DNA of 63,017 bases, filler included, from Chiloscyllium plagiosum (Eukaryota), in assembly GCF_004010195.1 (NCBI RefSeq). It is 3 parts of 3 records of this genome, joined end to end, with 100 filler letters (N's around TTAATTAATTAA, not from the genome) between each part and the next. Parts side by side here need not be neighbours in the genome. Positions count along the whole stretch, not along the records: positions 1 to 18,394 come from NC_057717.1; 2 more parts are not named here. One strand, written 5' to 3'. Within the stretch, counting starts at the first letter, position 1, and the number at the start of each line of letters is the position of its first letter. Both the position numbers and the translations under genes were made by a program. Below the pieces are notes generated by a model that saw nothing but the letters and a program-made list of their open reading frames with translations, was not told the DNA's origin and did not search any database. Of the stretch, positions 1 through 38,570 are shown piece after piece.

Positions 1-1689
1 AATTGAGCAGATATATCTGCTCAGATCAAAACTGTTGTACAGTGTGTTCCCGTGTTACTCGACCGAGTTGTCAGCTGTTCCTGACCAGTTGTAAATCGAC
101 CCGTTCGGACACCTGAATCTCAGACATTTGAATTACATGCGGCGCTTCAAAACCACTTTTGTCTGCCAGAAATTAGGCATCACAGAATTGAGAGACCTGA
201 CTGAATTCTTACAATCAGAATAAACACTTCAGTAACAAATTGTTAGACCCCTGAAGTCAGGTGTTAGCAATGAAGGATATATCATTCAGTGAGACAGAGG
301 GAAATATGCTGCATATTTTCTTTCCGCCTCTCTTCTCAGTGACGCATTTAGTGGCACAATGTAGAATCAAATTATTAAGAACTTATTGTCAGCATGTAAT
401 GTTACTGGCAAAGGTGATGTTACACTTCAAAAGCTTCTAATCTATTTCAACCTAAGCAGACAATCTGGTGCAGCAACATACATAGGATTAAGGGGAAGGG
501 AGTTCACAGTTGAAATCCAGTGACAGTAAATTTATGGCAGAGCAAATCCTAGTTTTATTCCTCTACAGTTCCCATAGAGCTTGAAAAATTCGGAATTGCT
601 ATCAAACCATTCTTGGATAATCGTTGAAATGCTACTTTCATCGTGTAAGCATTTTGTAACAATCCCTGGTTGCTGAAATCCTTGGTTAATTATTAACAAA
701 TTTGTGCACTCTCAAACCGGTAGTCTGTGTTGTCGGAGATTGTGTTCAGATCTGGTATAATGTAGTGGTAGTGTCTCTGACTCTGAGACATGTGAATTGT
801 GTACATTTACAATGTGTTGGAGAGGAATGTAATACCATGTCTTATCCGGTTAATTGGGGGGGAAAAACATTGAGTTCTTTGAGTTCTGCTGGAAGTCCAC
901 TCACAGAGGCCTGTGAAATCGATTTAATCGCTGTCCAGACTTGGGCCTCAGGTATTAGACGGAGGTTTGGCGATTTGCAGCCTGTTTCAACTCAATATTT
1001 GTTCCCTGGCTTTTGGGAATTGTTAGCTGGGTTAATAGTGTAACTCCTCAAAGAAATCCGGGATCTTGACTTGCTGTTCTATCAATACCATTTATAACTA
1101 ACCCACAATTAATTATTCCCAAAGCATATTTGATGACATTAAGTTGGAGCAGTTTTCGTTTGTATCAAACCATTACTGTTCAGTCCGGTGGGATTTTGGT
1201 TGAATCCAACACTTTGGTGTTAGCTTTTCAACCAGTCTTCAACGGATATCTCAGATCATCCAGTACACCTTCTTATAATGCTTTTCCAACAGAAGTCAGG
1301 TAAACTTAATCACTGTCTAAATCAATAGGTATAATTTCTCGTTCGACAAAATATGAAAACAATTTGCTGAAGGCGGATCACTGCACTTGAAATGATAAGC
1401 TTCCTTTCTCTGCACAGGAGCTGCCAGACCTGCCGCATTTCTTCAGAGAATTCTGTTTTTATTTCGGATTTCAAGCATTCAAAGTTTGTTGTTTCATATA
1501 AAATGTACTTTATATGAAACAAGTTGTTCAGAGAGAAAATATATTTTACCAAATTGTGAATTGTCAGAAATATTTAATACCACGTCATCGTTGAAAGTGA
1601 GTGATCTCATGTAGAGCCATAAATTCAGAAGAAACTGTATGATGAAGTAACAACCTGTTCCAGAGGGCAATGGCTGCTGTATGGAATTA

Positions 1690-1890
1690 TAGAATCTCTA
1701 TAGTGTGGAAACAGGCCATTTGCCCCAACAAGTCCATACCTACCCTTTGAAGAGTAACCCACCCAGACCCATTTCCCTACCCTATAGACCGTACATTTAA
1801 CGCTAACAAATACATCTAACTTAGATATCCCTGAACACCACGTGCAATTTAGCATAGCCAATTCACCTGACCTTCGCATATTTGGAGTGT
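1690..1890 (-). mobile_element. HE1-like SINE 3' fragment
   Basis: gtgtggaaacaggcc...caatttagcatagccaattcacctgacc matches the full copies elsewhere in the window. Confidence 0.75.
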
Positions 1891-2471
1891 ATTTGGGTGG
1901 GAGTTATTCTGACCACTCAAACAGAGAATATCAATGTTCCTGTTCCAAATAATCAACACGAATTTTTAAAGAATGTTTTTAACAATTAATTTGTTGATAT
2001 ATCGTATTGAAAAGTGTCCAGCAACTTTGCTAGCTGAATGAATGACACAATAATAGGAATATATGATCAGGAATAAAGCACTCAGCCCCACTTAAAACAT
2101 GGTACATCTGCGAGCTAACCTTTGACTAAAACTCTTTAACACATCTGATTAACAAGCAATAACTATCCCAGATTTAATGATTCAACTGCACATAACAAAG
2201 AGAAAAACCATTTCTGAAAGATATTTATGGTGGAGTAGGCTGAAAGTTGGAAGCTGGTGATCTCGTGAGGAGGTAGGTTGGTGATGTGGTAGATTTTGAG
2301 CTGATAGGCCGTGAGGTGTTGGGTGGCTGCTGGGTAAGCTTGCATGCACCTAGTCTGGCAGGGTGGCATCAAAGCAAATCATAATGGTCAGAAGGAAATA
2401 ACTTGGTTACATTGTGCTTAGTAGGTGAGGGGTCGTTTAAGCAGCAATGTAGGGTGTCTCCCTGGTGCCAA

Positions 2472-2795
2472 GATGGTTAATTGAGTGGCCAGCAGGCTGC
2501 AGGGCTGGTTAGTTGAGAGCTGAGGAGGGTGCAGGACTGGTTAGTTGGAGGTGGGCAGGGTGCCAGGCCAATTTGTTGAGAGGTCAACAGGGTGCAGGGC
2601 TGGTCAGTTGTGAGGTGGGGAGGGAGTCATGTTGGTTAGTTGAGTGGAAAACAGGGTGTCAGACTGGTTAGTTCAGACATTGGCAAGACGTCAGACTGGT
2701 TAGTTGAGAGGTGGGCAGGCTGCCGGGCTGGTTAGTTGAGAGGTGGGCAGGGTATCGGGAAGTTTAGTTGATCGGCTTAGCAGAGTGCTGGGCTG
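2472..2795 (+). repeat. Degenerate G-rich ~32-bp tandem repeat (~10 units) in the J-Cmu intron
   Basis: Units approximate GCTGGTTAGTTGAGAGGTGGGCAGGGTGCAGG. Confidence 0.85.
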
Positions 2796-3959
2796 TACTG
2801 ATGTGACAAGCGGATATGATGTCAAAATGTAAAAGTCGGAGTGTGGCGAAGGGCAGATGGGAACAGAGCTAGGATGCAATATGCACAGGTTGACTTGGGT
2901 AAAATGAGAGGTCAGTGGTGAAGGTCTGAGGTCATATCTGGTGGAGTGGCATCCTGTCAGGGGTTGTGAAAAGTCTGATTTCAGGACTAGATTCACCAAG
3001 GACCAGGTGCAGTGTAGCAGGAGTGGAATTGAGTGAAAAGAATCGAGATTACATTCTCGTCCAGAATATGGATTGCCTTGAATGTGTGTTATCTCTTGCG
3101 ATGAGGGTCATGTGTTCCGAGGGTGAATGAGCGTGTAACAGTGTAGGGGTTGTCAATGTGAGTGGAAATTGAGGTTGAGAGAGAGAGTCCGAGCGGTGGT
3201 TAGTCTGAGAGATTAGAGTTTTACCATGAACTGCTTGTAAGTTTAATAGTTATTGAAGTAAAAGAGTACTTGTTCATCTCTCGAATCATATTCACATAAA
3301 TGCTCAGTTCAGCTAGCTGTCACACTCCAAAGTCTCTGAACATTAATGGTCCTCTATGTTTCAGAGGCTTCCAGAATTCAGATAATTGTCAAGTCGATCA
3401 TTGAGCTTCCAGATAATTGGCATGATATCAGCTGTGACAGACATTCTCTCAGTCCCAGTGCCCTGCAACTGCCTTCTTCACAGAGAGGAGATTCTGACTG
3501 ACATTGATAAGCGAGGAAGGGATACTGGACTAGAAACGTTCACTCTGGTTTCTCTCCACTGATGCTGCCAGTTGTTGGGTTTCTCCAGCAACTTCGGTTT
3601 TTATTTCCAATTCCAACTTCCACGTTTTCTGGGTTTGCATTTTGTGAGACGACTGTGCTCGTCACCTGCAATCCAATGAAAGTGTTAGTTGGGGAGATTT
3701 TCTAACAGTTACTTTTCGTGGGATCAGGGCGTTCTTATTTCTAAGTTATATAGTAATGGTCAAGGTCGAGGGCATGTTTCTGAAGAGGGAAACAATAGAT
3801 CATGATGAACGACTGATTGGAAACAAAAATAAACTCAAGGTATGCTGAAGATTTTAGCAGGAACACACTGGCATACATTTACAGCTGAGGAAACATTTGG
3901 GTCACCAATAAGGTCGAATTAACCGCAAGTAACTTGATCAATTGTTCATTCTATCCTAG

Positions 3960-4259
3960 AAACTGTATCTACCCCCACACTTTATGGACTTGTCTCCTCC
4001 TGTCAGCAACACAACGCCGACGGTTCAGTGATCTTTGGTTGTTTGGCCATGGACTATTCCCCTGACGTTACCAAGGTGACCTGGAAGAAAGGTGGGCAGC
4101 CAATCACGACTGCATTGAAGACTTATCCATCCGTGAGAAACAAGAAGGGAACTTACACCCTGAGCAGCCAGTTAACCCTGCCTGAGTCGGAAGCGGATTG
4201 CAGCAAAATCTCCTGTGAGGTTCAACACAGCGGGTCAAAGCAGAGCACTGGAATGCCAT
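3960..4259 (+). CDS. IGHM: IgM CH1 exon
   Basis: Acceptor ctatcctag|, donor |gtaagt. Encodes [44 protein letters not shown]...SSQLTL...[17 protein letters not shown], with the C-W-C core and an N-terminal Cys for the L-chain bond. Confidence 0.95.
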
Positions 4260-4336
4260 GTAAGTCTTGTGGGAACTGAGGTGAACAGTACATCTGTGGT
4301 TAACATGAATAGGGCATTAGTTATAATACATTTGAC

Positions 4337-5540
4337 ATAGCCATAGAGATATACAGCACAGGAAAAGATCATTCGGCCCATTCAGTCCAAGCCAATCAAT
4401 AACAGTTCCCTAACTGTTCCAGTTCAATATGTCCGCAATTGATCCATTGCTTTGTGTGACTTGGCATTTCTTATATGCATCTAAATATTTCTCACATATT
4501 ATGCGAGGCTCAGCCTCGACATGACTTACTGGCACTGAGCTACAGATTCACACCCTCTGTGTGATTTTGTTTTCCCCGTTATCCTCCTGTCCTGACCTTA
4601 ACTCTATGCCCTTGAGGCATTGCTCCATCCATTAAGGGAAAATGTTTTGTTCTGTTTACTCTGTGTATGTCTACCATAATTCCAGACATCACAATCATCT
4701 TCTCTCTCAATCTTCTCTGCTCCAAGGAAAACACCAGTTTGGTGAATCACATTTTATAATTAAAAACTTCCAGCCCAGGAAAAATCCTGGAATATCTCAA
4801 CAATGCTGCCTTCTGTCTAATCACATTCCTTCCATAACATGGAGTCCTATACTATGCATGATGCTTCATGTCTGGCTTAACCAGTATTTCATTAATTTCC
4901 AGTATCATCTCCCAACACCTAATGTAAATGTCTTGGCTCATAAAAGCAAATACCCTTCACACATTCTTAGCCTTTTTATCCCCCTGCCACATTACTATAA
5001 GGGATCGATGGGCATGCAATCCTTTTCAGGGTTCCACCATTCAAAACATAATACCTCTTAGTTTCTTCTGACCAAGTGCATCACCTTACAGTTATCCAGA
5101 ATGATTTCAATTTGCCATTTCTCAGCACAAGTGGCCAACCCTTCTGTATCTTGCTGCAATCTAAAGCTATCATGGTCACTACCTGCCAACATGGCAATTT
5201 TCGCTTCATCTGTGAACTTACTAGCCAAATCTCCTGCAGTATATTCTAAATCACTTTTACGTAATAGAGACATCAATAAATCAACACTGAATCCTGCAGA
5301 ACACCGCTAGACATATACTTCCAGCCACACAAACATCCTACGGCCATTATCCTCTGCACTCCGCCACTCAGCTACCTCAGGATTCAATTCGTCAAATTGA
5401 CTTGATCTCACCTGGCTCTGATCTATATGATCATCTGGACATCGACTTATTTCTGCGAAAACACCATCAAATTGGTCAGACATGACTTCCTCACAATAAA
5501 TTCGTGCTGAGAATTGTTGATTACTCTTCCAGATGAAGGT
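4337..5540 (-). mobile_element. Degenerate CR1-clade LINE 3' part in the CH1-CH2 intron
   Basis: Minus-strand ORF 5058-5276 has SKFTDEAKI...LQQD...AEKWQIE...CKVMHL (RT C-terminal motifs). Confidence 0.8.
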
Positions 5541-6334
5541 TAATTCCCCTCTCCATCGTTACAATGTCTTCCCTACTACTGAATCTAGCTTGAGCCGAGC
5601 CTGTGGTTTCATTGTTTTTCCCTTCATCCGTCCTGCATAACAATACCACACTGGCAGTTTTGCCATATCCCCTGTGGCCAGGAATTATAAATTATTGCCA
5701 GCGACCCACTATTTCATCCTTTGCCTGGCATACATTTTATCTGTCCTGGAAATATAACTATTATTCATCCAGCAAGGCAGCACATCACATCATCTATCCT
5801 CATTCCTGAAAAAAAGCATCACAACACTTCACCATGTTTTCGATACCCACATATTCCCTCACACTGATGAACATCAACAATCTTTACCGCCCTTCTACAT
5901 CTTTCCCTGTCTCGCTTGAAGGCATTATATTTGGAATATTGAACTGCTACTCCTGCCCCTCTCTCAACATGTCTCCATGATATCAACACTTTTTCCTTTA
6001 TGCCGTTAACTCATCTGCCTTGTTTATCATACTCCTTTCATTGAAATGAATACCATCCAACCTTACTATCTCACCCTCTGATTTAACTGGCCTATCATTT
6101 CTGTGCCTTCTTGACTTCCTTGCTGTGACCTGTAGTTTTGGCATTACATTGTCATTATCACATCGTCCAGCTAATTGTAATGTGTTGATCTCAGCTTCTA
6201 TAACACTCTGCATAATTATGATACTTGTAATATCAAGGTTAGTATCAATTAGCCATAATAAACTTTGTTATAATAGAAGTGAATGTATTTGTTATCAAAT
6301 TTGTGAGATAATTTATGCAATGTTTTTCATAAAG

Positions 6335-6643
6335 GTCCACTTCTCCAGCCAACTCTTCTTCTCACCGTGAGTCCCAGTGAAGAAATCGCAAGCAGCAAGT
6401 TTGCAACCATCGTGTGTTCAATCATTGATTTCCATCCGAAGGAAATCTCCGTGACATGGTTGAAAAATGGCCAATCCGTGGATTCTGTTGTCTTCACATC
6501 TCCTGTGTGTGAGGTGGATGGGAACATCTCGGTGATGAGTCGGCTGACAGTCCCTTCTGGTGAATGGTTCAACAGCGCAGTGTATACCTGCCAGGTCACT
6601 CATGGAGAGAACACTCAAAGTCAAAACATCACCACACCCCAGG
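6335..6643 (+). CDS. IGHM: IgM CH2 exon
   Basis: Acceptor tttttcataaag|, donor |gtaaga. Encodes [46 protein letters not shown]...[14 protein letters not shown]...NITTPQ. Confidence 0.95.
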
Positions 6644-8504
6644 GTAAGACATACATACGAGAGAACTAGAAATCATTTTGAACTCCGATGTTAATCAGAT
6701 ACACACATTTATCAAATTTAGTGAACAGCACTAAGGTGTACAGCTTCCCATTCACAAACGTGTCATGTATTTCAGTTTGAGTGTTACATTGGCGTTGCTC
6801 ATAATTCAACATTATGTCAAATCAGAAAAGCATGTTTCCCTCTATACTGAAGACATATAGACAGTGAGCTGGATTAACAGTCTTTTTTTAAAGTAGTTTG
6901 TTGGCTGACCACATTTGGAGTGGCAGAGTGCCGAATCCATACCTGGTGACTTGCTTAAGGATAAAGGGGTTGGGGATGGGGGAGGGGTCCGTGTCTTGTG
7001 GGGGCCGGGGAGCAGGGTCAGAGAGGTATTTCTTTGAAACATAGAACATGCTGAGAGGCCGAGATTGGGTGAACGTGGAGTAAATGTTTTTGCCAGTAGG
7101 CTAGAGTAGGACAAGATGGCATATCCTCGGAGTCAAAGGGTGCACCATTTGGCACTGCGATGGGGAAGAATTTCTTCAGCTAGAGGGTGGTGCATGTGTG
7201 GAATTCATTGCTGCAGAGGGTTATGGAGGCCAAGTCAGTGACTGTATTTAAGGTGGCGATAGATCGGTTAGTACATGGAGAAGGCTGGAGAATGGGGTAG
7301 AAGAACATACCAGCCATGATCGAATGGCAGGGCAGACTCGATTGGCCGAACTGCCTCATTCTGCACCTTTATCTTACTATCTTGTGGTCTCAAAATGACA
7401 TGGTAAAAATGTGCAGCGACCCTTTTTTTCAAAGTAGATCAAAATGTGTTCAGTGCTTCATTTCCAGCTCAGGAATGACCTGTTGTCCTTGGGCATTGTA
7501 CGTCATAGATTTTATCTGGTACTGAGCTCTTCAACTTCATTCATGGGACCAGATCGCCGACCAAGTTTGTATCACATTTTATTAATCTGGATAAACATGA
7601 CCTAATTGAGCCTCTTTAAGATACTCTCTGCAATTAGTGGCTGTGGCAGGAGAATACATTTTAGTGGTAAGGCTACAGTAGGGATGAACGATCTAGGAAT
7701 TTGAGTCAGGCTGATTGAGCCCAGGGTGAGGATGGAAATGTTCATGCAGTGAGCAGTGGAAGTCTGAATAATACTCGTGCAAATTTCCATCAAGTTGGTA
7801 GAATAATTTAAGACACTCGTATTTGTTTAGTCTCTGTTCTACTAAGAAATTCACTGTTTTGTTTTTAGATCTACTCCAAATTTGACAGGAGTAATAATAT
7901 CTCGTGGTATGTTTTAGAGAATGATCTCACACCAATAATGTCAATTATTTTCAATAACGTTAAACATATTGAATAGAATTTCTGTGACTGATCACTGCCC
8001 CGTAACACCTTATATCCTCTGCAAATGCATGAGAACAAAGACAATAATTATGATTGATTACAGTTTGCCCAAAATTGGGGATGTAATGTGGCATCCAGAA
8101 TGCCCAGCAGCATTTGCAAGTAAGTTTCATGAACATAGAAATGAAGTCGTTATATTCAGATTACTCTTGTCACAAGTATCAATGGATGGTCGTAAGTGAG
8201 AGAAGAAGTCTGGAAGGAAGATAATTCCATGTGTTACACCATGGTATCTTTGATTTTACTTTTTCACAGGTTTCACTTGTTACAAATCCAGTGTTCTTTA
8301 TGAATGATTACACGGGGCATGTTATAGATAATAACAAATGTTTTCACAAATCAAAATATCTCAACAACAGGAACCATCATTTTAGCAATAGTTGGAAACT
8401 GCCATGTCAAAGGTGGTTTCTTCACTTCATGTGGGAGTAGCCTGAAGGCTCGGTGTTTTGATTCTAAAGAGGCATTTTTCATTGATTTGATTTTTGTTTC
8501 ATAG

Positions 8505-8813
8505 GAGGTAATGAGTGCCACGATTACACAGTTAAAATTCTACCACCGCCAGTAGAACAGGTCTTACTGGAGGCGACGGTGACATTAACATGCGTTGTGT
8601 CCAATCTTCCTTCTGGAGTCAATGTCACCTGGATACAAGAAAAGAAGACTCTGAAATCAGAGATTTCTAACCAGCCTGGAGAAGATCCCGACAGCGTGAT
8701 CAGCAAATTGAGCATTTCTACTCAAACCTGGCTGAGTCACGTTAGTTTTGAATGTGTGGTGAACCATCCATATCTACCGACTCCTCTGAGAGACTCCATC
8801 CACAAGGGAAATG
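8505..8813 (+). CDS. IGHM: IgM CH3 exon
   Basis: Acceptor ttttgtttcatag|, donor |gtgagc. Encodes [43 protein letters not shown]...[22 protein letters not shown]. Confidence 0.95.
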
Positions 8814-9262
8814 GTGAGCGGTGAGATGAAAGAACAAAGTATTCCATGTGTAATCTAGATCCAGTTACATACATGGCATGCTTAGATTGGCTCCAAATAA
8901 CGTTGGGAGCATGAAAGATGTGTCTGATGGCAGGATAGCTAAATATCTGATTGAGAACAGAATGGACCAAAGGTTGATCTTTTATGATCATAAGTCAAAT
9001 AAAGTGGTAAGAAGCCTGGTTTATGTTTTTAACATCAGCAATGACAAATGGACAGGATGTCTTAGTTGTGGGTTAGAAACATGGAGTCGACTTTCGAATT
9101 AAACTCTTTACTCTTAATGAACAGAATGGATATCATTCTGCTGGTTTAGAAAATGAGAGTGTAATTTAAAAACAAAACTGGCATATTTTAATATGTAGTG
9201 AAATTGCAATATTGATTCTGGATTTTTATAATTGATTTATGTTTGTTTCAAATATTCTTCAG

Positions 9263-9654
9263 GAGAAAAGCTACTGGAGCCATCAGTGTCTATCCTACTG
9301 CCACCAACAGAAGACGTTTCCGCTCAGAGGTTTCTCTCCCTCACCTGTTTAGTGAGAGGCTTCTACCCCCGAGAGATCTTCATCAAGTGGACAAACAATG
9401 ACAAGCCAGTGAATCCCAGTAACTACAAGAACACCGAGGTGATGGCGGAGAGCGAGAACACCTCCTTCTTCATGTACAGCCTGTTATCCATTACAGCAGA
9501 GGAGTGGGCCAGCGGTGCTTCTTACTCCTGTGTGGTGGGACATGAAGCGATTCCATTGAAGATCATCAACAGAACAGTCGATAAATCCAGCGGTAAACCG
9601 AGTTTTGTGAACATTTCACTTGCACTGATGGACACTATTAATTCATGTCAATAA
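9263..9654 (+). CDS. IGHM: IgM CH4 exon plus secretory tailpiece (internal donor after 9592 for the membrane form)
   Basis: Acceptor ttcttcag|. Encodes [14 protein letters not shown]...[17 protein letters not shown]...[24 protein letters not shown], then tail [19 protein letters not shown] with N-glycan sequon and penultimate Cys. Internal donor G|gtaaac at 9592/9593. Confidence 0.96.
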
Positions 9655-9695
9655 AATCTCAAAGTTGCTTTTAATAATTCAACAAAAGTAATAAA
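9650..9695 (+). promoter_or_regulatory. Poly(A) signals of the secretory IgM mRNA
   Basis: AATAAA at 9650-9655 (overlapping the TAA stop) and at 9690-9695. Confidence 0.7.
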
Positions 9696-10889
9696 GCTTT
9701 TTCCTCAAATTGTGATTTAAATATACAACCGTTTAATTAATTGTGCTTCCCACTTTTACTTATATTCCACCTGTAAAGTTAAGTTGGATTATTAACAGGT
9801 CTAGGACTCGTGTCTTGTGCAGTTAATGTCCCCTGCTCAGGTAAACTTAGGATCGGAGGCAGAGTAAAGCTCACTCAATGTCAGATTCTGCAAAGTACCT
9901 TAACCATCTTAAATTCCATTAAAACGAAATCTGAAAATGCCCAATTTCTCTCAAGTAAAGACCACGAACTTGAACTTTGTTTTCCTGATTCCCCGATTGC
10001 ACATTCTCACAAAATTCATGTCGGCTTTAAACTGCCACAATGCAACAATTGCGAACGCAATATTAAGAGACATTTGGAATTAGTTTTGATTGGAAAATGC
10101 CAATCGCAAACAGTGCAGCGTAAGTTGAATATAACCCTTGTTTCTGTGGAACGAGGGATCTTGTACCAGTGCAGTGGTTGACAGAATGCATCTTTATTTC
10201 CACACCAAAGAGACCCGAAAGGAAGGTTATTGTTGTTGAGCCGAGGTAGGGGGAGAGGGGAATTATTAATGGTCTGTACTCTTACTCACTCTGCAGAGTT
10301 TTCAAGACAGAAGTCCTCTGTAATGTAACCCAGTTGCTGACAGTAACAGCCAGCTTCTTATTTACTGTCCGAAGATTCCATGTTTCCATATAAAATAATA
10401 CATTTGTGTCTGCCGAATTCGATTGACCCTATTAATCGTTTGTTAACATTGACTCCCCTTAATCCAAAACTGGTATTTACATCATCCCAGTTTGTCGTCC
10501 ATAGTTTTGTCTCAGTTTTCTGGAGCACATGGGGATAAATTCTGGTATTCGAACATCTGACATAATTTTGCTTCACGTACAGAACATTTGTAGATATTTT
10601 GTAATCAGAAATGCAATTCTGCATATCTGGAGTAGTGGGGATTTGAGATCAGGTCTCTGGTCTCAGAGACAGAAATTCTTTCGCTGTAACAAAAGAGTTG
10701 CTCACATCGAGGGCCGAAGGGCCTGTTCTGCGCAGTATTGTTCTATGTTCTAAAGCATTTATCTCTCCACGACGATCAGAAATGTTCCTGACAACATCAG
10801 AGTCAGATATAAATGTTGACAATCCATAAAAACTGGAACAATAATTCAAATTACAGTCTAGTATAAGAGCTGAAACAGTTTCAGAGAAA

Positions 10890-11930
10890 TGCTCACAAAT
10901 ACACACATAAGAACACATACACAGGCTCTCACCTAAAGACACTAGCTTATGCACACACATAAAAGTGCACACAGATGAACTGTCACACACTCTTACATAC
11001 ACAGAGCCACACATGCAAATGGTACTTGAACACATCTAAGCTCCCACAAAAACGCACATACACAGAAAAAATAGCACGTGCACAAGTGAACAAGGATATC
11101 CACACATAATTACGAAAAGCATAGACGCAAATTAATACACAAATGGACATGACTGCATTTCTATTCATGCAGCATAATGCTGACAGACATGCATTCGTAC
11201 GCACACAGATACAACATCTGAAAAATGTCCTCCCACATGTAAACTCACACAGACACATATGAGCACAGAGTTAGACATTAATAGTATTATTTTTTTAATT
11301 TTCATAATCACAAACATATGATTGCAGAGGCAGCTTAATTTATTTTTAAACCACTTTGATCAGCACTTATACATGGTCACACACACACATAAATTCAGAG
11401 TCTCACATGCAGACGCGCAAGTAATGGGGCGTTTATTAAACAAGGAGAATGGCACAAGCGTCAGCAAACATCCACACATAATAACACAAACAAGCACATC
11501 AGACAGTGGTTTAGGATAGATTGCCACACAAACAGAGATCATCACGCAAAGATAAACATCCACCAAACATGACGTTGCATGCTCACATTTATTGAGCACA
11601 AAAATGAAAATAACCTAATGTAGGTAGGACCTGAAATAGACAGATCCTACTGTCTATTGGTAGGATGGCACTAACGAAAACTAAACATGCACAAGGACAT
11701 TAAAAGATTAACAAAGGCGTCAACGAAGTGCCATTTTAGCATGATGATGCTTACACATTGTGAAGGGAACAAGATTTACATACAAAATACACGTGAGCAC
11801 ATCAGCAGTAAAGAATATGAGTATGTTTATTTATGCACACACTCCAAAATGGGCAAGTGCAAAGTAAGAGACACGCCCACAAACACAAGGAAAAATATAC
11901 ACATCAAGCAGTAGAAAAAATAAATTAAGA
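10890..11930. repeat. CA-rich low-complexity tract in the CH4-TM1 intron
   Basis: Degenerate (CA)n/ACAT-rich sequence; explains the spurious Cys/Val-rich minus-strand ORFs. Confidence 0.7.
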
Positions 11931-12449
11931 GAGACATGGACAAAAACTTAATCCTAAATATGCAGATCCTACAAACAAAAATATGAAGCAATGTTTTTAC
12001 TGTGGATGAAATTTATGTTCATGATTTGCCAAGCAATTGGTCACCAATATATCATGAAGATGAGAACCATATTTGAACCTTTATCCAGTGATGGACAAAT
12101 TTTTGAACTAAACTGCGATCACAGCCCATATTTAAAGTATAATGATAATATTAAAATATTTGTTCTCAGTAAGTATTCCTCAAATGATAATATTCTTCAA
12201 TGATAGATTAAAAGGCAAAGTAATTCAAAGTTTTCTGGCACGGACAGTAAGGAAAAATGTACAGTTAGTATTAGTAATTTCTTGCTGCGAGTCAGTAATG
12301 CATTAGTACATGCAGATAGAGTCAAACTTGAGAAACACCTGACTGCCTGAAGAAGATGTAACGGTCTCTAATTACAATACTTAGGTGCAGATAGATCAGT
12401 CAGGATCAATAAACAATCTGAATACGTTCTCTCGGTTTTATATTTATAG

Positions 12450-12577
12450 ATTCAATAGATCGCACTTGGATTGAAGACTATGAGGATGATAATGGCAACA
12501 TCTGGACAACTGATTCCACGTTCATCACCCTGTTCTTCCTGAGTATTTTCTACAGTGCTGCCGTCACTCTGGTGAAG
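12450..12577 (+). CDS. IGHM: IgM TM1 exon
   Basis: Acceptor tttatag|, donor |gtgaga. Encodes DSIDRTWIEDYEDDNGNIWTTDSTFITLFFLSIFYSAAVTLVK: acidic spacer plus CART transmembrane motif with FYS. Confidence 0.95.
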
Positions 12578-12717
12578 GTGAGAGTAATCAAATATTTCAC
12601 ACAGCAAGGAGCCAAAGATGTATTGTGAAATATCAAAGTGTGCCACTGAATACAACTGAGAACCTGAATGCATCTGATCATAAACATCTGCATCATGACT
12701 TTATCTCTCTTTTCCAG

Positions 12718-12726
12718 GTTAAGTGA
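12718..12726 (+). CDS. IGHM: IgM TM2 exon coding part (VK-stop)
   Basis: Acceptor ctctcttttccag| then GTT AAG TGA, completing the KVK cytoplasmic tail. AATAAA at 12851-12856. Confidence 0.93.
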   Translation, partial: VK

Positions 12727-13311
12727 ATGAGTTGTGGACACCGTAGATTTTCCTCATCTATTTATCAAGGCTTCTGAATTCCCAATCTACAATCTGTCCT
12801 GTTGCTGACTCGAACAGTGAGTTCACTTAAGTTTGTCAGTGTGTAACTGTAATAAATATTGATGGCCTTTCGCTTTCACTTTGATATCTTTGAGATTATT
12901 ATAGTTGGAATAATTTATAGCTTCCCAATTCAACTTGTTTTTTTTTTACTTGTTCCTTATTCAGAATGGTTGCCTCCCTTATATGTTGAGCCCTTGTATT
13001 CTCTTTCTGGCGAATGTTACAGATGTACATAAAATTCACGGCTCATAGTGCATGCAATCTCGTCTCAATGTAGCATCCAGTCAATATATTCACTTCTATT
13101 AACTTTAACATAAGCTTTTCGATTAAAATGCTTCTGAAATGGTTAATAAATCTTGAATGAAATGCACTAACTTTGAGTTTGCTTGATTCTTTCTTCAAGT
13201 CCAATAAGTAAAAATATATTTTCCCAAGGATACACGTCCCACTCCCTTCCCAGCAAACACTTTTCACTTGATCTGTCCAGTTGTGTTTCATCCAGTCATA
13301 AGGTTAATGCT

Positions 13312-13325
13312 GCGCCACCAAGTGG
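13312..13325 (-). promoter_or_regulatory. CTCF-like motif 3' of IgM TM2
   Basis: Minus strand reads CCACTTGGTGGCGC, one mismatch to the CCASYAGRKGGCRS core. Confidence 0.55.
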
Positions 13326-14836
13326 ACCACTAATATAAATGCATCTTTCACACTGTCTGTCTTAGAGAATTCTCCAGAGGCAGAATGATGAGACACCGTT
13401 TCCTCTTAAGTACAAATCGTCACACCCACGTGTCATGTGATAAGAAAAATCAGGAATATTGCTCCTCAGAAACGTATAAGAGGCAAGCAATGGAATTAGA
13501 AAGTTGAATCTGTTAAAAAACTAAAACTAAAAGTACTCCCAATGTCAGGACAGCCTGGGTTAGTAATGCATAACTCGACACCCCAAATGTCCAACTAAAC
13601 GTTCATCAGCCAAAAATGTCAACGTTCAGTCACATATGCAGGCACAACACATGAACAAACCAAGGCTGGATTCTCTCAACTGGAGTTTTTCTCACACATA
13701 TGACTCATGGAGCATAAATTCTAGGATATATATGACACACCACACCTCTCAAATCACATTAAGTGAGGCTGTGATATGTTTTATACAGGAATATTACTGA
13801 ACAGAAACCCTCAAAAATTATAAATCACAGCTCGATTTCTGTGACAGAAATTCTTTCGCTCTCTTACCCTAAACCTACACCCTCTCGTTCTGGACTCCCT
13901 GAATCCAGGAAAAAAATCCTGTCTATCCACTATATCTACGCCACTCAAAATGTTATACTCCTCGCCCTCAGATGCTCCAGGGAAAACAAGCAGCTTATTA
14001 AGCCTCTTATTATATTACTGAATGTGGCTGTGAAGATGTAGAAACCGGGAGGGAGTCCTTCATAAATCATGCTGCATTTTACATGAATGATATCATTGTT
14101 TTAATATCAGTTAGTTTGAAATCGAGGATGGGCGCCTTTTCAATTTCTAGAGCTTGCTGTTAATAGAACCTATAAATTATTTCTGTATTTGTAATAACTT
14201 TTATCAACCGGTCATTTTACATTTAGTTGTTACAGTTATCATGTGAATTACTGCACTTCACTGAGTACTTAACCAAAAAAAATCCCCAAAGCACAATAAA
14301 GTATAACTGCAAATTAAATACTGTCTCTAATTATTACAAAATAAAAGTATTTAGCAATTCAATGACATCAAATTGCTGGGAATGTGGTAAACAAGTCAGA
14401 TCTGAGGTCGGCAAAAATTTACAGAATGTCATTAATAAATTTACAGTGTGGTGAAATAATTGGCAAACGAAGTTCGATACAGATTAATGTAACGTGATGT
14501 ATCTTGGTAGGAATAGTGTAGCAGGTCACTTATTCGAATTTGCACGTCTAATTGGAAGAGACAGATAAAGGGGTCTCACACAATTACATCAGTCACTGAA
14601 AAAATTGCAAAAGGAAAACGAAGACCATCAAAACACAAACAAAGCTCTAAGCTTTATGTATAAATGGAGAGATTTGAAAGTAGGGATATCTTGCTAAATA
14701 CCTATTAAAACTGGTTTCGACTATAATTAAAAGTATTGCCTGCAGTTCCTGCTGCCACGTTATAGAATGGACACACAAGCAGTGGAGAGGATGAAGAGAG
14801 ATTTAAAAGAGTGAAACACAAATTCATAGGTGTGTA

Positions 14837-14914
14837 TGTTTTTTGGAGGAGTTGTTGTGCCGTTCACTTCTTTCTTGTTTTTTGGAGGAGTTGTTGTGCC
14901 GTTCACTTCTTTCT
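14837..14914. repeat. Perfect 39-bp tandem duplication
   Basis: TGTTTTTTGGAGGAGTTGTTGTGCCGTTCACTTCTTTCT x2. Confidence 0.9.
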
Positions 14915-15039
14915 TGAAAAGAAAAACAGGCTGAGGGGTCAAAAATTATGAAAGGTTTTGATAAGAGCAGGTGCAGAGAAAACATTTCCTCCATGGAGTG
15001 GAGCAGAAGTAGAGGTTGTCAATAAAAAAAAGGAAGCAC

Positions 15040-16993
15040 ATGTCAGCTATAGACAGGATAGATCGAGTGAATACTTAGAAGAGTATAAAGGCAGTTAGTG
15101 TGTACTTAAGTGAGAAATCAGGCGGGTAAAAAAGGGGACAGGAGATGGCTTTGGCAAACTGAGTTCAGGAGAATCCAAAGGGCTTTGACAAATACGTTAA
15201 GGACAACAGGGTAACTAGAGAGAGTATCGGACCCCTCAAAGATCAGCAAGGCAGCCTTTGTGTGGAAACGCAGAAGATGGGGCAGATACTGAACAAGTAT
15301 TTTGCATCAGTGTTTACTGTGGAAAAGTGCATGGAAGATATAGAATGTAAGGAAATACATGGTGACATCTTGAAAAATGTCCATATTACAGAGGGCGAAG
15401 TGCTAGATGTCTTGAAACGCATAAAAGTTATAAATCCCCAGGAGCTGATCAGGTGTACCCTAGAACTCTGTGGAAAGCTAGGGAAGTGATTGCAGGGCCT
15501 CTTACTGTGATATCTGTAGCATTGATAGTCACAGGTGAGGTGCCCGAAGCCTGGATGTTGGCTAACGTGGTGCCACTGATTAAGAAAGGTGGTAAGGACA
15601 AATCAGGGAGCTACGGACCAGATAGTTTGATGCCAGTAGTGGGCACGTTGTTGGAGGGAATCTTGAGGGGCAGGATGTACATGTAATTGGAAAGGCAAGG
15701 ACTTATTAGGGATAATCAACATGGCTTTATGCGTGGGAAGTCATGTCTCAAAAACTTGATTGAGTTCTTTTGAAGAAGTAACAAAGAGGATTGATGAGGG
15801 CAGAGTGGTAGACCTTATCTATATGGACATCAGTAAGGTGCGCAACAAGGTTCCCCATGAGAAACTGGTGAGCAAGGTTAGATTTCATGGAATACTGTGG
15901 CTACTCACCATTTGGATACAGAACTGACTCAAAGGTAGAAGACAGAGGGTGGGAGTGGAGGGTTGTTTTTCAGACTGGAGGCCTGTGACCAGTGGAGTGC
16001 CAAAAAGATCGTTGCTAGGTCCATTACATTTCATCATTTATGTCAATGATTTGGATGTGAGAATAAGAAGTATAGTTGGTCCGTTTACAGATGACACCAA
16101 AATTGGAGGTGCAGTGGACAGCGAAGGTTACTCCAGATTATAATGGGATCTTTTGCAGATGGGACAATGAGCTGAGAAGTGACAGATGGATTTTAATTTA
16201 GATAAATGTGAGGTGCTGCACTTCGGGAAAGCAAATTTTAGCAGGACTTATGGTAAGGTCCTAGGGAGTGTTACTGAACTAAAAGACCTTGAAGTGCAGG
16301 TTCATAGCTCCTTGAAAGCGGAGTCGCAGGCAGATAGTATAGTGAAGAAGACGTTTTGTATGCTTTCCTTTATTGGTCAGAGTACTGAGTACAGGAGTTG
16401 GGAGATCATGGTGCAGCTGTACGGGACATTGATTAGGCCACTTTTGGAATATTGCGCGCATTCTGGTCTCCTTCCTATCAGAAAAGATGTTGTGAATTTT
16501 GGAAGTGTTCAGAAAACATTTACAAGGATATTGCCAGGATTGAAGGATTTCACCCATCGGGAGAGGTTGAAACGGCTAGGGCTATTTTCCCTGGAGCATC
16601 AGAGACTGAAGGGTGACATGATAGAGGTTTATAAAATCATGAGGGGCTTGGATAGGATAAACAGACAATGCATTTTCCCTGGGATGGGGGAGTCCAGAAC
16701 GAGAGGGCATAGATTTAGGGTGGGAGGGGAAAGATATAAAAGAGACCTAAGAGGCAACATTTTCACTCAGAGGGTGATATATGTATGGAGTGAGCTGCCA
16801 GAGGAAGTGGTGACGGCTAGTACAATTGCAACATTTAAAAGACATTTGGATAGGTATATGAATAGGAAGGGTTGGAGGGATATGGGCCGTGTGCTGGCAG
16901 ATGGGAATAGACTGGGTTGGGATATATGGTCGGAATGGATGAGTTGGACCCAAGGGACTATTTCCGTACTGTACATCTCGATGACTCTATGAG
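15040..16993 (+). mobile_element. CR1-clade (HER1-like) LINE, 5'-truncated RT region to 3' tail, disrupted
   Basis: ORF pieces YFASVFTVE, ANVVPLIKKG, WRPVTSGVP, FTDDTKIGG, CEVLHFG, RPLLEYC, GDMIEVYKIM; tail ...atgactctatga. Confidence 0.93.
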
Positions 16994-17024
16994 TCCCCAC
17001 GAAATCCAAAAGGGAATTAAGATG

Positions 17025-18075
17025 AACCTGCGCTCCAAGGTCTTTTTGTTCAGCAACACTCCCTAGGACCTTCCCATTAACTGCCTAAATCCTGCTAAGA
17101 TTTGCTTGCCCAAAATGCAGCACCTCGCATTTATTTGAATTCAACTCCATCTGCCACTTCTCAGCCCATTGGTCGAACTGGTCAAGATCCTGTTGTAATC
17201 TGAGGTAACCTTCTTCGCTGTCCACTACACCTCCAATTTTGGTGTCATCTGCAAGCTTACTAACTGTAACTCTTAAGCTCGGTTCCAAATCATTTATATA
17301 ATTGACAAAAAGTATAGATCCCAGCACCATTCCTTGTGGCACTCCACTAGTCACAGGCCTCCAGTCTGAAAAACACCATCCACCATCACGTTCTGTCTTC
17401 TGCCTTTGAGCCAGTTCTGTATCCAAATGGTTGGTTCACCCTGTATTTAAGATCTAACCTTGCTGACCAGTCTCCTCTGGGGAGTTTTGCTGAATGTCTT
17501 ACTGAAGTCCATGTAGATCACCGGCACCGCTCTGTCCTCATCAATCCTCTTTATTATTTCTTCAAAAAAGCTCAGTCAGGTTTGTGAGACATGATTTCCC
17601 ACGCACCAAGTCACGTTGACTATCCCTAATAAGTCCTTGCCTTTTGAAATACATGCACATCCTGTCCCTCAGGATTCCCTGCATCTTTATGCGTTTCAAG
17701 ACATCCAGCACTTCCTTCTCTGTAATATGCACATTTTGCAAGGTGTCACCATCTATTTCCCTACAATCTATATCTTCTATATCCTTTTCCACAGTAAATA
17801 CTGATGCAAAATACTCGTTTGGCATCTCCCCATTTTCTGCAGCTCCACACAAAGGCCGCTTTGTCGATCTCTGAGGGGTCCTATTCTCTCCCGACTTCCC
17901 CTTTTGTTCTTAATGTATTTGTAAAAACCTTTTGGATTCTCCTTAATTCTATTTGCGAAAGCTATCTCTTAAATATACTCCTCCTGCCATTATACTCTTT
18001 TTAGGATGCACTCGATCTATCCCGTCTATACCTTACATATGCTTCCTTCGTTTTCTTAACTAAACCCTCAATTTC
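17025..18075 (-). mobile_element. CR1-clade LINE RT fragment
   Basis: Minus ORFs EYFASVFTVEK, GKSCLTNLTE, WRPVTSGVPQG, ADDTKIGG, AEKWQMELN. Confidence 0.92.
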
Positions 18076-18394
18076 TTACCTGGATAGGTGCAACTCTGAC
18101 AATCCTGAACAAGCTAGACACAAAGCTGCCTGCCTGTTTGGCACCACATCCACAAACATTCAGTCCCTCCATCACCAGCACTCAGTGGCAGCAGTTATTA
18201 CACTCTACATGGTGCACTGCGGAAATTAACCAAAGATTCCAAGACAGCATCTTCCAAACACACAGCCACTTCCATCCAGAAAGACAAGGGGAGCAGGTAC
18301 TTGAGAACACCACCATCTGCAAGTCCCCTCCAAGCCACTCACCATCCTGACTTGGAAATATATCGCCATTCCTTCACAGTCGTTGGGTCAAAAC

Positions 18395-32609: not shown

Positions 32610-32938
32610 CTATACACATTCTGATCTCCTGATGCTCTTGCTGAGGGGAGAGGGGAGGGTCACGTGGGTGAGGGCACAGGAGAAGTGAGCGTTGGACTCC
32701 CAGTCAGACCCAGAGAGGGTCAGCAGGCTGCTGACACTGTAGGTGCTGTCCGAAGCTCGCAGGTAGTTGCTGGTCTGAACCCCATCCGAAATGACCGCAC
32801 CGTCCTTCTTCCACTGCACCTCCAGCTCATCGGGATAGAAGTGATTGGCAAGGCACACCAGGGTGGCAGTGCCCTTGGCATTGACCTGCTCTGGGGAGGG
32901 TGGCAGCAGGGTCAGCTTGGGCTGAGCGTTCTCACGGC
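32610..32938 (-). CDS. IGKC: Ig kappa-type constant exon, intact reading frame
   Basis: Acceptor cttgtttttcag|. Encodes SRENAQPKLTLLPPSPEQVNAKGTATLVCLANHFYPDELEVQWKKDG...YSVSSLLTLSGSDWESNAHFSCALTHVTLPSPLSKSIRRSECV*. Minus-strand AATAAA at 32366-32371 and 32090-32095. Confidence 0.95.
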
Positions 32939-33369
32939 CTGAAAAACAAGAGAAACAATTTCAATCCCTGCCGTTCAAAGGGATTTCAACTCTCTGAACA
33001 TTAACTGGGAAAACAATCCGTTTGAATATTTGTGGCCAACACCAAACAAACCTCATAAAAGGACAGGGATTTTTACACATTCTCCCCGTGTCTACTTGGG
33101 TTTCCTCCCATTGTCACAAGGATGTGTAGGCTAGGAGGATTATCCATGGGAATTATAGGGTGGGTGGGATACTATTTAGAGGGTCAGCCTGGGCTGAATG
33201 GCCTGCTTCCACACTGTAGGGATACTATGATTTCTGACGGAGATAACTATGAGAAGGAGGCAGTCAGTGCATGACTGAGGGTGTTGTACTTTGATGCATC
33301 GAGTATATGAAACAAGGTTAATGAGCCTGTAGTGCAGGGACGTGGCTGCAAGGGGATCAGGGCTGGGAA

Positions 33370-36300
33370 CTAAATATCCAAGGATGTACATCCTATTGAA
33401 AGGAAATGCAAGTGTGAAGGAGGAACTGAAGGTAATCCTTGTTAGTCAGGAAATGGTCTTGGGGAGATTGATGGTATCAAAACTTGGTAAGTCCCCAGGG
33501 CCTGATGCTCTACATCCCAGAGTCCTTAAGAAAGTGGGTGTAGAAATAGTGGACACATTGGTGATCATTTTCCAGCATTCTGTAGACTCTGACAGAGTTC
33601 CAGTGGACTGGACAGTATCCAGTGTAATCGCACTTTTTAATAAAAGGAAGGGGAGTGAAAATGAGGAATTATACAGGAGGAAAACGCTGGAGTCAGTTAT
33701 TAAAGATACAATAACCGAGCATTTGGAAAGCAGTGACAGGATCGGTCCGAGTCAGCATGGATTTACTAAAGGGAAATCAGGCCTGACACATCTTCTGGAA
33801 GGTTTTGAGGATGTGATCAGTAGAGAGTGGACAAGGCTGAATCAGTGGACAACAAAAACAAAAAATTATGAAAAAGTTCAGCCGGTCTGGCAGCATCTGT
33901 GGAGAGAAACTGAAGTTAGCTTTTCGGATTGAGTGACCTTTCCTCAGATCTCAGTGGATGTTGTGCATCTGGACTTTCAAAAGATTTTTGACAAGGTCCC
34001 ATGCGAGAGATTACCCTGTCACTTGGAAATAAAATTAAATCAACAGCAAGAGGAAATTTTGAGTTGGACTGCATAGAATCTGTGTGAGTCAACTTAAGAA
34101 ACTACAAAGGAAGAAAGAGCCTGATGGGAGTTATATACCAGCCTCCTCGCAGTAGGCAGGATGTGGATCAGAAAATAAATCAGGAGATAGAAAAGGTATA
34201 TAAGAAAGGGATTACTACAATAGTCATGGGGACTGCAATATGCAGGTGGACTGGGAAAGTCAGGTTGGGAATGGATGTCAAGGAAAGGAATTCATGGAAT
34301 GTCTGCGAGAGGAGTTTTTTGGATCAGCTTTTGGTAGACCCACTAGGAAACAGGCAATTCCGGATTCGGTGATGTGTAATGAGGCAGCTCTGATTGGGGA
34401 GCTGAAGGTGAGTGAACCCTGAGGGGGCAGTGACCATAATGTGATAGAATTCACCCTGCAGTTCGAGAGGGAGAAGCTGGAATTCGATGTAATAAGAGGA
34501 GCTAATGAGCAAGTTAGACAAAGGAGAGCTAATGGACGTGATCTATTTGGATTTCCAGAAGGCCTTTGACAGGTTGCCACACATGAGGCTGCTAAATAAC
34601 ATAAGAGCCCATGGGGTTTGGGCGCTGGTATTGGCATGGATAGAGAGTGGAAATGAATGGATCTTTTGCAGGATGGCAGCTGGTGCCGAGTGCAGTTCAG
34701 CAGGGGGCAGTGTTGGGACTTCAGCTATTCATGTAACAATTAATTATATATCAACGATCTGGGAAAAGGAACTGAGGGCATTGTTGGTTCAGGGGGACAC
34801 AAGGAAGACTGGAAGAGCAATAGTGAGAGGAGATTCGAGAGGGAGGGCAATCGACAGGTGTTTCTGCAGCTGCAGATGGGAATCCAGGGTGGTGTGTTGT
34901 CTCCCTGGTGCCAGGGTCAAGGATGTCACTGAGCAGCTGCAGAGCACCCTGAGGGGAGAGGGGGAACAGGCAGCAGTCATGATCTACATTGGTCCCAGTG
35001 ACAGAATTTAGGGAGCTCAGGAGGGAATTAGCAACAGGAGCTCAAAAATAGGAATCTCCAGATTACTCCCAATGATCAATGCAAGTAAGGATAGGAACAG
35101 GAGGATAAGGCAGGGTGTACGTGAGGCTGGAAAGATGGTCGAGGAGGGAGGGCTTTAGATAGTTGTGACATTGGGAATGACTTTGTGGGAGATGTGACCT
35201 CTATAGATTGAATGGGTTGCTCCTGATCAGGAACTGACCTCCTTGTGGGATGATTTTCTGGTGCTGTTGGAGTGGGTTGAAGCTAACATGGAAGGGCTGT
35301 GGGAACCAGGATGTAATATCAAGGAGGAACACCAAGGAACACAGAATCCTGAAAAAGACAGATAACACCAGAATAAGGAATAGTAATTTATTAGGCAGAG
35401 TCAGAGAGACAGAGAGAGCAATAAATTCTAAGTCCGGCTGACTGTGCATGTATGGGACTGTACGGAATGTGGAGAATAAGATTGGGGAGTTACAGATGCA
35501 CATTACCAAGTGGAAATCTGATGTTATCACTCTAACGGATAAGGCTCAAATGAGGACAGGACTGGTTGTTAAATATTCCTGGAAACAAGGTGTTCAGGAA
35601 AGATAGGAAAAGGGGGAAAGAGTGAGAGGTGTGGGATTGGTTAAGGAGATCGGTGCAGAGCTGGAGAAAGAGGATGTCCCAGAGGGGTCAAGGACAGCAT
35701 TGATTTAGTTTGAGATAAGGAGCAAAAAAGGTGCAATCAGCTTGTTCAGTGCAGTCTGTCGGTCACCAACTAGAGGGAAGGATGTCGAGGGACAAATCTG
35801 AAAGGAATTCACAGCAAACATTAGGGGGACTTTAATTCTTGGAATATAGACTGGGACAGTAGCAGTGTGAAGGGCAGAGAGGGACCACAGTTGAGAGAGT
35901 ATGCTCAGGCGAATTTTCTCCAGCCGTGTGTCTCCATTCAAATGAGAAAGGAAGCTCTGCGAGACCTGAATCTTGGGAGTGAGGAGGCCCAAGTAGATCA
36001 GGTGTCAGTGAGAGGACATTTAGGGAAGAGTGATCATTGTATCACAAGGTTTAGGGTGAAAGTGGAAAAGGACAAAGGAGAATCCAGAATAAAGACATGA
36101 TCATGGATCAGATCCCATGGATAACCTCCAAATGTCTCACACTTCGAAATTTTCACTTTTTTTTCAAACAGAAATATGGATGAGTTACAAAACTAATATT
36201 TTGCCACAGTATTTATTGTTAAGAAATATATGGAATTTTGGGAAATAAATATTGCTGTCTTGAGAAGAGTCCATATTACAGAAGAAGAAGAGGTGCAGTA

Positions 36301-38262
36301 ATCTGTTCTTATAACTGAGAAGGGTAGCTAAATCCCCAGGACCTGATCAGGTCCATCCCAGTAAGTTGTGGGAAGCTTGGGAAGAGACAGTGATGCCCCT
36401 TGCGAAGATGCTATATCACCAACAGCCAGTGTTGGAAGATCGGAGAGTGGCTGACATTGTGCTGATATTTCAGAAGGTCTGAAAGGAATACCCAGGGAAG
36501 TATAGACCGGTGAGTCTGATATCAGTGGGGAGTAAGTTATTGGAGGAGATTTTGAGATACAGGATCTACATGCATTTGGAAAGACAAGGATTGATTATGG
36601 GTAGTCCACATGGCTTTGTAAGTGGGAAATTGTGTCTCAAAAATTTGATTGAGTATTTTGAAGATGTGACCAAGAAGATAGCTGAAAGCAGAATCATAGA
36701 CATTGTCTACGTGGACTTTAGCAAGCCTTTGACAAGGTACTGCATGGACAACTGGTTAGTAAGGTTAGATCAAATGGAATCCAGGGAGGGCAAGCCAACT
36801 GGTACAAAATTGGCTTGATGGTTGGAGACAGAGAGTGGTGGTAGTAGATGGTTGATCAGAATGGAAGCCTGTGACCAGCGATGTGGCGAAAGGATTGGTT
36901 CTGGATTCATCATTGTTCATCATTTATAGAAACAAATTGAATGAGAATATAGGAGGTAGGGTTCGTGAGTTTGCAGATGACATTAAAATTGGTGGCAAAG
37001 TGGAAAGTGATGAAGGCTATTTGAGAGTACATTTACATTAGGTATTGAGATAATAGCGAGGCTTTGCATTTTGGTACAAAAACCAGACCACGGTTTACAC
37101 AGTTAGTTGTGGGGCCATCGGAAGTTGTCAAAGAGGGAGACTAAGGAATGGAGGCATAGAGTGCCTTGAAACTGGTGCCACATGTAGACAGGGTGGTGAA
37201 GAAAGCATTTGGTACACTTGGCTATGGGAGTTGAGATGACATGTTATGGTTCTCCAAGATATTGGTCAGGCCACATTTCCAATCACCTGCTATTGGAAGG
37301 ATGGCATTAAACTGGAAAGGGTGTAAAAAGAATGACAAGGCCGTCTCTGAGACTGGAAGGCATGAGTTATATGGAGAGGTTGGTTAGGCCTGGGCTACTT
37401 TCTTTGGAAGGTCAGAAGTCGTGGGGTGACATTTTAGAGGTTTATAAAATCATAATGGACAGAGATAAGGTTACTAGCTAAGGTCTTTTCCCCAGGGTAG
37501 GGTCGTCCAAAACTAGAGGGCAGAGGTTTAAAGCAAGAGGGGAAAGATTCAAAAGGGACCTGAGGTACACCTCTTTCACATAGAGGGTGGTGCATGTATT
37601 GAATGAACTGCCAGAGGATGTCATAGAGGTGAGTCTGATTATAACATTTAAAAGACATTTGAACAGGTACATGGAGATGAAAGCTATTGGGGGAAATGAG
37701 CCAAATGCAGGCAAATGGGACTACGGGGAATAGAGAAGGTGAATAATTCGTGAAGGATGTGAATATGTTGCAGATGGGGTAAATAAAATTGCCATGGAAA
37801 GTTCAGAGATGAAGGAATTAAGTTAAGAAAATATTTTGGAGAAGTTGAGACTGTCTTCATTGGAGAAGAGAAGGCTGAGAAAAACTTTGTCTGAGGAATT
37901 CAACATCAAGAGGGGTCTGGACAGAATAATTAGGGAGAAAATGTTTCCACTTATGAAAGGTTTGAGAGGGAGAGGGAGATTTAAAGTAATTAGTAAATGA
38001 ATAAAAAGTAAGATGAGGCAAAACGTTTTCAGCCAGTGGGTGGTTAAGGTGTGGAATGCACTGCCTGAGAGTGTGGTGGAGGCAGCTTCAATTGAAACAT
38101 TCCGAAGGGAATGAGACTGTTATTTGAAAAGGAACAATGTGCAGGGTGACAGGGAGAAGGCAGGAGAATGACACTCAGTGAATTGCTCATTCAGAGAGCC
38201 AGTACAGACAGGATGGACAGAATAGCCTCCTTGTGCACGGGAACAATTCTGTGATTGTGTGA
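33370..38262 (+). mobile_element. Mosaic of nested degenerate CR1 LINE fragments filling the kappa J-C intron
   Basis: KSPGPDALHPRVLK, QHGFTKGKS, IYQPP, DVIYLDFQKAFD, VCCLPGARVKDV (ORF1), SDH, VYVDFSK and two CR1 3' ends. Confidence 0.9.
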
Positions 38263-38309
38263 TTGAGCAGAGTTAAAGCTGGGGGAGGTGGGAGCTCGGT
38301 GTCTCACTG

Positions 38310-38311
<2 letters not shown>

Positions 38312-38341
<30 letters not shown>
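38312..38341. repeat. (CTG)10 microsatellite
   Basis: Ten perfect CTG units. Confidence 0.95.
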
Positions 38342-38365
38342 AGGTCAGTGAGATCAGAGACTGGG

Positions 38366-38570
38366 GCTGGAAATGTGTTGCTGGAAAAGCGCAGCAGGTC
38401 AGGCAGCATCCAGGGAACAGGAGAATCGACGTTTCGGGCATTCCTGAAGAAGGGCTTATGCCCGAAACGTCGATTCTCCTGTTCCCTGGATGCTGCCTGA
38501 CCTGCTGCGCTTTTCCAGCAACACATTTCCAGCTCTGATCTCCAGCATTTGCAGACCTCACTTTCTCCTC
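38366..38570 (+). mobile_element. Penelope-like element terminal fragment with a perfect 76-bp inverted repeat
   Basis: Arms 38366-38441 and 38458-38533 are exact reverse complements; CTGAAGA-GGGC/GCCC-GAAAC core; same family as 62791-63017. Confidence 0.82.

Follow-up and report, generated by a model that had tools for sequence, protein, structure and literature searches.

A 32-bp G-rich minisatellite upstream of Cmu1 in shark IgM clusters is probably an unstable passenger repeat rather than a switch region

Introduction

Does the G-rich tandem array that precedes the first constant exon of an IgM cluster in Chiloscyllium plagiosum serve antibody switching, or is it a repeat that merely occupies the S-mu position? 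The DNA analysed (the window; 63,017 nucleotides, filler included) is composed of three parts, and the array is situated in the first (positions 1–18394), which maps to G000:C8 from 69430802. An earlier note on this DNA suggested a proto-switch or R-loop element that focuses AID breaks, and added that sharks are generally described as lacking conventional switch regions. The latter statement agrees with the accessible parts of three papers, according to which shark inter-cluster switching proceeds without such regions (PMC4279169, PMC8201067, PMC4588147); that sharks switch between Ig clusters at all is reported in the accessible parts of these and a fourth (PMC4279169, PMC8201067, PMC4588147, PMC5192425). 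We found no description of the array in the literature searched, although one may appear in the primary shark switching papers or their supplements.

Structure and setting of the array

The array is composed of nine 32-bp units on the plus strand at 2474–2760, each scoring at least 21/32 against the consensus, followed by a decayed tenth unit at 2761–2795; the mean unit identity is 66%. TRF reports a period of 32 with 8.8 copies and 70% matches at 2474–2753, and the lag-32 identity is 0.67, compared with 0.30 ± 0.03 (maximum 0.41) in 5000 shuffles. The top strand, which is the non-template strand, contains 43% G with a skew of +0.56, and AGCT occurs once. Cmu1 starts at 3960, 1.19 kb downstream of the array. 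The earlier note had described about ten degenerate 32-bp units some 1.2 kb upstream of CH1, G-rich on the non-template strand and poor in AGCT, and this description is accurate.

We counted 28 RGYW motifs on the top strand (among them AGTT 9, GGTT 7, GGCT 5 and GGCA 4), a density of 94/kb in the array against 27/kb in window 1–2223 (p=0.01, dinucleotide shuffles). The hotspots recorded in the note are thus present, but since RGYW sits on the non-template strand, their target C belongs to the template strand, and the non-template strand itself has only three WRCY motifs. One unit contains GGAGGTGGGCAGG at 2547–2559 (plus strand), which over 13 nt matches the human hypervariable minisatellite core named in the accessible Table 2 of PMC9069542; the note had recognized this classic core as well. 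At 2707 and 2739 there are copies with one mismatch, identical to the initial 13 nt of the 'minisatellite recombination sequence' in that table, and the chance mean is 0.07.

The host is an apparently intact IgM cluster on the plus strand, in which Cmu1 (3960–4259, AG/GT borders), Cmu2 (6346–6642), Cmu3 (8507–8812), Cmu4 with the secretory tail (9263–9653) and membrane exon TM1 (12451–12577) all have open frames, the borders from Cmu2 onwards being approximate. Upstream of the window lie a V segment with an open frame, D1 and JH, with their signal sequences; JH, at G000:C8:69427102, is separated from the array by about 6.1 kb that includes a 2.35-kb N gap.

The array is embedded in a sharply bounded block (2224–3230) with a G skew of +0.45 to +0.55, compared with approximately 0 elsewhere in the intron; 5 of 468 background 800-bp tiles are equally skewed. 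The 5′ part of the block (2224–2473, plus strand, skew +0.46) is present in IgM paralogues, and its conservation is that of the rest of the intron: its identity to major-family paralogues is 79–82%, against 76–83% for most other intron segments, so that no extra conservation of the array flank was detected relative to the remaining intron. The 3′ part (2796–3230, plus strand, skew +0.45) finds its best genome matches in IgM paralogues. Neither Pfam nor Rfam yielded a match to the block. Across 12 frames, no Pfam match had an E below 0.03, which rules out a coding remnant; a structured RNA was ruled out by the lack of an Rfam match and a DNA folding z of -1.3. As a separate observation, the window intron is without two insertions (∼1.6 kb at 2224/2225 and ∼0.7 kb at 3065–3072) that are found in most IgM paralogues, and both match dispersed LINE-like repeats.

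Distribution in the genome

Our genome searches score the best 35–40 candidates, and among these we obtained 53 matches to the array at 35 places, all 35 of which are IgM J–C introns. The assignment was made by flank alignment for 34 places and, for C94972, by a Cmu1 match 2.4 kb downstream. An exact 14-mer of the array has 31 matches, as many as a control; 17 are in IgM arrays, and since the other 14 are scattered singles, the word is no commoner than the control outside IgM arrays. A profile of the 5′ flank matched only IgM loci in the 1.3 Mb of DNA examined. A dispersed satellite or common transposon is therefore ruled out among the best 35–40 candidates, and likewise by the flank profile.

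The note had proposed to search the unit against the genome, and within the same best candidates the array is indeed confined to IgH J–C introns rather than dispersed. The note's question of whether confinement extends to IgM, IgW and IgNAR is answered positively for IgM only: the array is absent from the six IgNAR regions examined on C44, from the single IgW-like cluster found (on C100836) and from a divergent IgM-like remnant on C45. Since IgNAR and the IgW-like cluster lack it, part of what the note itself had named as speaking against its reading, absence from other IgH clusters, is what we observe. The strongest G skew in one IgNAR intron belongs to a common dispersed repeat.

In a second species, one contig spans window 2224–2709 with 35 differences and 14 gaps; in a third, the 5′ flank of the array is present. 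An IgNAR domain of the genome studied here is 92% identical to a Chiloscyllium punctatum record, in keeping with a bamboo-shark-like animal.

Several loci met during this survey have unusual structures of their own. The IgW-like cluster on C100836 has two tandem CH1-like exons (12547 and 14641) and repeated downstream domains, and carries its own minisatellite (29 bp × 69) in a C–C intron. The IgM-like remnant (G000:C45:9910383-9917638) is degenerate, with no array upstream; its CH1 and CH3 are only 2.4 kb apart with no CH2 match between them, which resembles three-domain shark IgM. At G000:C14:79.72-79.76 Mb, several Ig C1-type exons in both orientations are 29–36% identical to IgM/IgW domains. 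At G000:C11:90745007-90754135, two IgM Cmu1 exons point towards one another across about 9 kb that includes gaps, as a result of either inversion or misassembly.

Comparison with switch regions

We compared the array with the defining features of switch regions as given in the accessible parts of PMC5904731, PMC9921937 and PMC9149575. Like mammalian S-mu and S-gamma, it lies in the intron upstream of CH1, is built of tandem units whose non-template strand is rich in G, has deletions at the repeat and reaches about 1.1 kb in its longest copy. It differs in length: switch regions extend over 1–10 kb (accessible text of PMC5904731 and PMC9921937), whereas the shark array measures 0.06–0.3 kb in most copies (0.3 kb here, one or two units in 32 of 59 copies, 1.1 kb in one). 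It differs in sequence too. Dense AGCT or WGCW motifs were not found, the single AGCT and five WGCW of the window array corresponding, for WGCW, to 17/kb versus 19/kb in the rest of the intron, and in the 34-unit copy both motifs are depleted relative to dinucleotide shuffles, with top-strand RGYW not above them (p=0.6). The window array contains no G3 quadruplex motif and has a mean G4Hunter score of 0.75. By an R-loop rule that we re-implemented, the window locus and a two-unit copy fail, whereas the 19- and 34-unit copies pass, the latter over 1.8 kb.

Further differences concern usage. The array does not precede the C exons of other isotypes (six IgNAR regions and one IgW-like cluster), and it appears dispensable in apparently intact clusters. 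In two sets of contigs from related species, which constitute a weak test, we saw no I exon, no intron-to-Cmu1 joint among the joints listed and no depth peak at the array. Of two raw runs, a single-cell one yielded almost exclusively SINE reads and the other none, too few reads to bear on expression of the array. Among 69 units, the variation carries no AID footprint: hotspot G/C positions show 11 changes at 4 sites, compared with 45 at 15 for other G/C positions.

Under the proto-switch hypothesis, R-loops would form, or polymerase would stall, on the transcribed G-skewed block and its array in B cells, which would focus AID breaks and lead to switching from one IgM cluster to another. The S-mu-like position, the abundance of G on the non-template strand, the retention throughout IgM with long arrays in several lineages and the presence of window 2224–2709 on one contig of a second species are all consistent with such a role; so are the longest copies, which reach the lower end of the S range and pass the R-loop rule, and two deletions that start at the array, one of them joining at AGCT (described below). 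Nevertheless, we consider a proto-switch unlikely. AGCT and WGCW are at or below background, a G3 quadruplex motif is missing, the strand that an R-loop would expose has only three WRCY, G/C sites in hotspots do not vary more than the remaining G/C sites and many intact-looking clusters make do with one or two units. The array is also about 6 kb from JH, whereas shark switch junctions are said to lie in the intron flanking JH (Zhu et al. 2012). Finally, IgNAR and the IgW-like cluster have no array, although switching between IgM and IgW is reported in the accessible part of PMC4279169. Of the earlier note's interpretation, the position, the G-rich strand and the confinement to IgH introns stand; isotype spread, the one- to two-unit copies, hotspot density, quadruplex content and the R-loop rule at this locus speak against it.

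There is accordingly only a slight chance that the array and its surroundings represent a rudimentary shark S-mu, that is, a G-skewed, R-loop-prone block before Cmu1 whose arrays repeatedly reach about 1 kb, attract breaks and bias switching among IgM clusters. If true, this would be the raw material of tetrapod switch regions, which would have evolved from it by gaining AGCT density.

The inter-cluster isotype switching of sharks described by Hsu and colleagues reportedly has its junctions in the J–C intron, where the array is also found. As summarized in the accessible parts of reviews, it involves the same type of locus; however, it works without switch regions and extends to IgW, whose cluster in this genome lacks the array.

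Copy number and unit evolution

We identified 59 copies with the 5′ flank, some of which, on unplaced contigs, may be alleles of placed loci: 32 have one or two units, 6 have three to five, 17 have 9–34, three end at a gap or contig end and one has none in place. The copy at C8:32.80M, scored as three units in this count, is an interrupted 16-unit array. About ten clusters with an open Cmu1 frame carry only one or two units, and the longest array (34 units, ∼1.1 kb) is assembled gap-free on C76956.

Two kinds of multi-unit array can be distinguished. Old mixed arrays, with 63–73% identity between units, are found in the window's group, the C8:32.7-Mb group and the orphans on C4 and C18, and all of these share diagnostic variant units, which suggests descent from one ancestral multi-unit array. 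Copies of the largest subfamily usually pair a divergent first unit with a last unit, and a small number of its members have 23–34 units at 86–90% identity; all long homogeneous arrays are on small unplaced contigs. The flank tree is midpoint-rooted and poorly resolved inside the major subfamily. For the first reason, the direction of copy-number change is deduced rather than observed; for the second, the number of expansions and contractions is not fixed. Separately, within G000:C101125:32300-42299 a segment of about 1.9 kb, carrying the 5′ flank and a two-unit array, is duplicated in tandem.

Short copies could be a product of assembly, with the one- and two-unit copies and both array-edge deletions being false and most IgM clusters really carrying long arrays. 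Most two-unit copies are exactly a first-type and a last-type unit, the long homogeneous arrays are restricted to small contigs, two copies run into N gaps beyond their third unit, and the C4 and C18 junctions are known from the assembly alone. On the other hand, C76956 has a 34-unit array assembled gap-free, there are copies with one, three, four and five units as well as locus-specific variants, the deletion joints are colinear, free of gaps and show microhomology, and in 22 of 28 two-unit copies, counted by eye, a first-unit-specific base lies within 50 nt of the exit base. We therefore regard an artefact of this extent as quite improbable.

Deletions at the array

Two orphan copies, both known from the assembly alone, have lost constant exons by deletions that start at the array. 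In the C18 orphan (G000:C18:58353985-58354280), the end of unit 9 joins the Cmu4–TM intron at a site homologous to window 10345–10365 (plus strand), so that all four C exons are lost while J and TM1 are retained; the junction has a GTCAG(C) overlap and adjoins an AGCT from the downstream side. In the C4 orphan (G000:C4:182001-182350), Cmu1, Cmu2 and most of Cmu3 are missing: a point in the flank, 25 bp beyond the last unit, is fused to the 3′ part of Cmu3 with an overlap of 2–4 nt. Both joints are gap-free and colinear, with microhomology.

A third gap-free multi-kb deletion, on C26 (Cmu4 to TM1), is away from the array. The share at the array edge is thus two of three, for which the naive p is 0.003, both having been found via the array search. 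Six other apparent breaks lie away from the array, and some of them may be long insertions. In human deletions, both minisatellite core motifs are reported to be enriched at the breakpoints (accessible Table 2 of PMC9069542). If real, the C4 and C18 deletions occurred in the germline, and intrinsic fragility of the minisatellite accounts for them no less well than AID targeting does. Fragility is thus suggested by two assembled deletions, both of which came from the array search.

Nature of the array

GC-rich hypervariable minisatellites (VNTRs, GGAGGTGGGCAGGARG core) are among the closest known systems. The array has head-to-tail units of a length (32 bp) within the 10–100 bp range, beyond chance, a 13-nt core match, strong strand asymmetry, interspersed variant units and nearby deletions, and its copy number ranges widely, from 1 to 34 units among paralogues with common flanks. 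It differs in that the length variation seen here is among paralogous gene clusters and not among alleles. In 406 kb of other DNA examined, we found six other arrays (period at least 20, at least five copies), approximately one per 68 kb; at this frequency, one G-rich array in an ancestral 8–10-kb IgM intron needs no special cause.

We conclude that the array is probably not a switch region but an old VNTR specific to IgM and likely to be fragile in the germline. It is likely a break-prone, unstable passenger repeat because it lacks dense break motifs and is absent from other antibody classes. All copies likely descend from one event: the minisatellite probably arose once in an ancestral IgM cluster, and its length would since have shifted by slippage and unequal exchange. 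The deepest-branching lineages would have kept the old mixed array of 9–20 units; the largest subfamily would have shrunk to the divergent first and the last unit, a stable minimum under unequal exchange. Some of its members carry 23–34 near-identical units. Where breaks occurred in or next to the array, repair probably proceeded via microhomology of 2–6 nt. Neither its distribution, nor its length range, nor its deletions need a role in antibody switching.

Several points stand against the VNTR interpretation: the G-skewed block of about 1 kb is kept in IgM paralogues and its origin is unexplained, RGYW in the window copy exceeds shuffles (p=0.01), the 34-unit copy (1.1 kb) passes the R-loop rule and the two-unit state could partly be assembler collapse. 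Mammalian J–C introns hold the enhancer, and the G-rich block or repeated unit, IgM-specific and kept in the paralogues examined, might likewise bind transcription factors and act as an enhancer in the IgM intron, stronger the more copies it has, but this is very unlikely given that there is no excess conservation, that an octamer-like word in the window 5′ flank is not kept in paralogues and that the units decay freely.

A passenger VNTR is a modest finding, a marker that distinguishes IgM clusters and a repeat from which broken IgM copies likely arise. It also provides a natural experiment, in that clusters of one genome carry either 2 or 20–34 units at the S-mu position, and since array length varies naturally between clusters, the proto-switch idea is directly testable. 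Should switch junctions turn out to depend on array length, switch regions would date back to cartilaginous fish, contrary to the reviews.

Other features of the window

Downstream of the IgM gene, we observed a perfect 39-bp duplication (14837–14916) and LINE-like fragments at about 15050–17900. The second stretch of the window contains, on the minus strand at 32625–39800, an Ig light-chain cluster with V at ∼39759, J at ∼38964 and a C exon at ∼32625–32939, which has many paralogues on C11.
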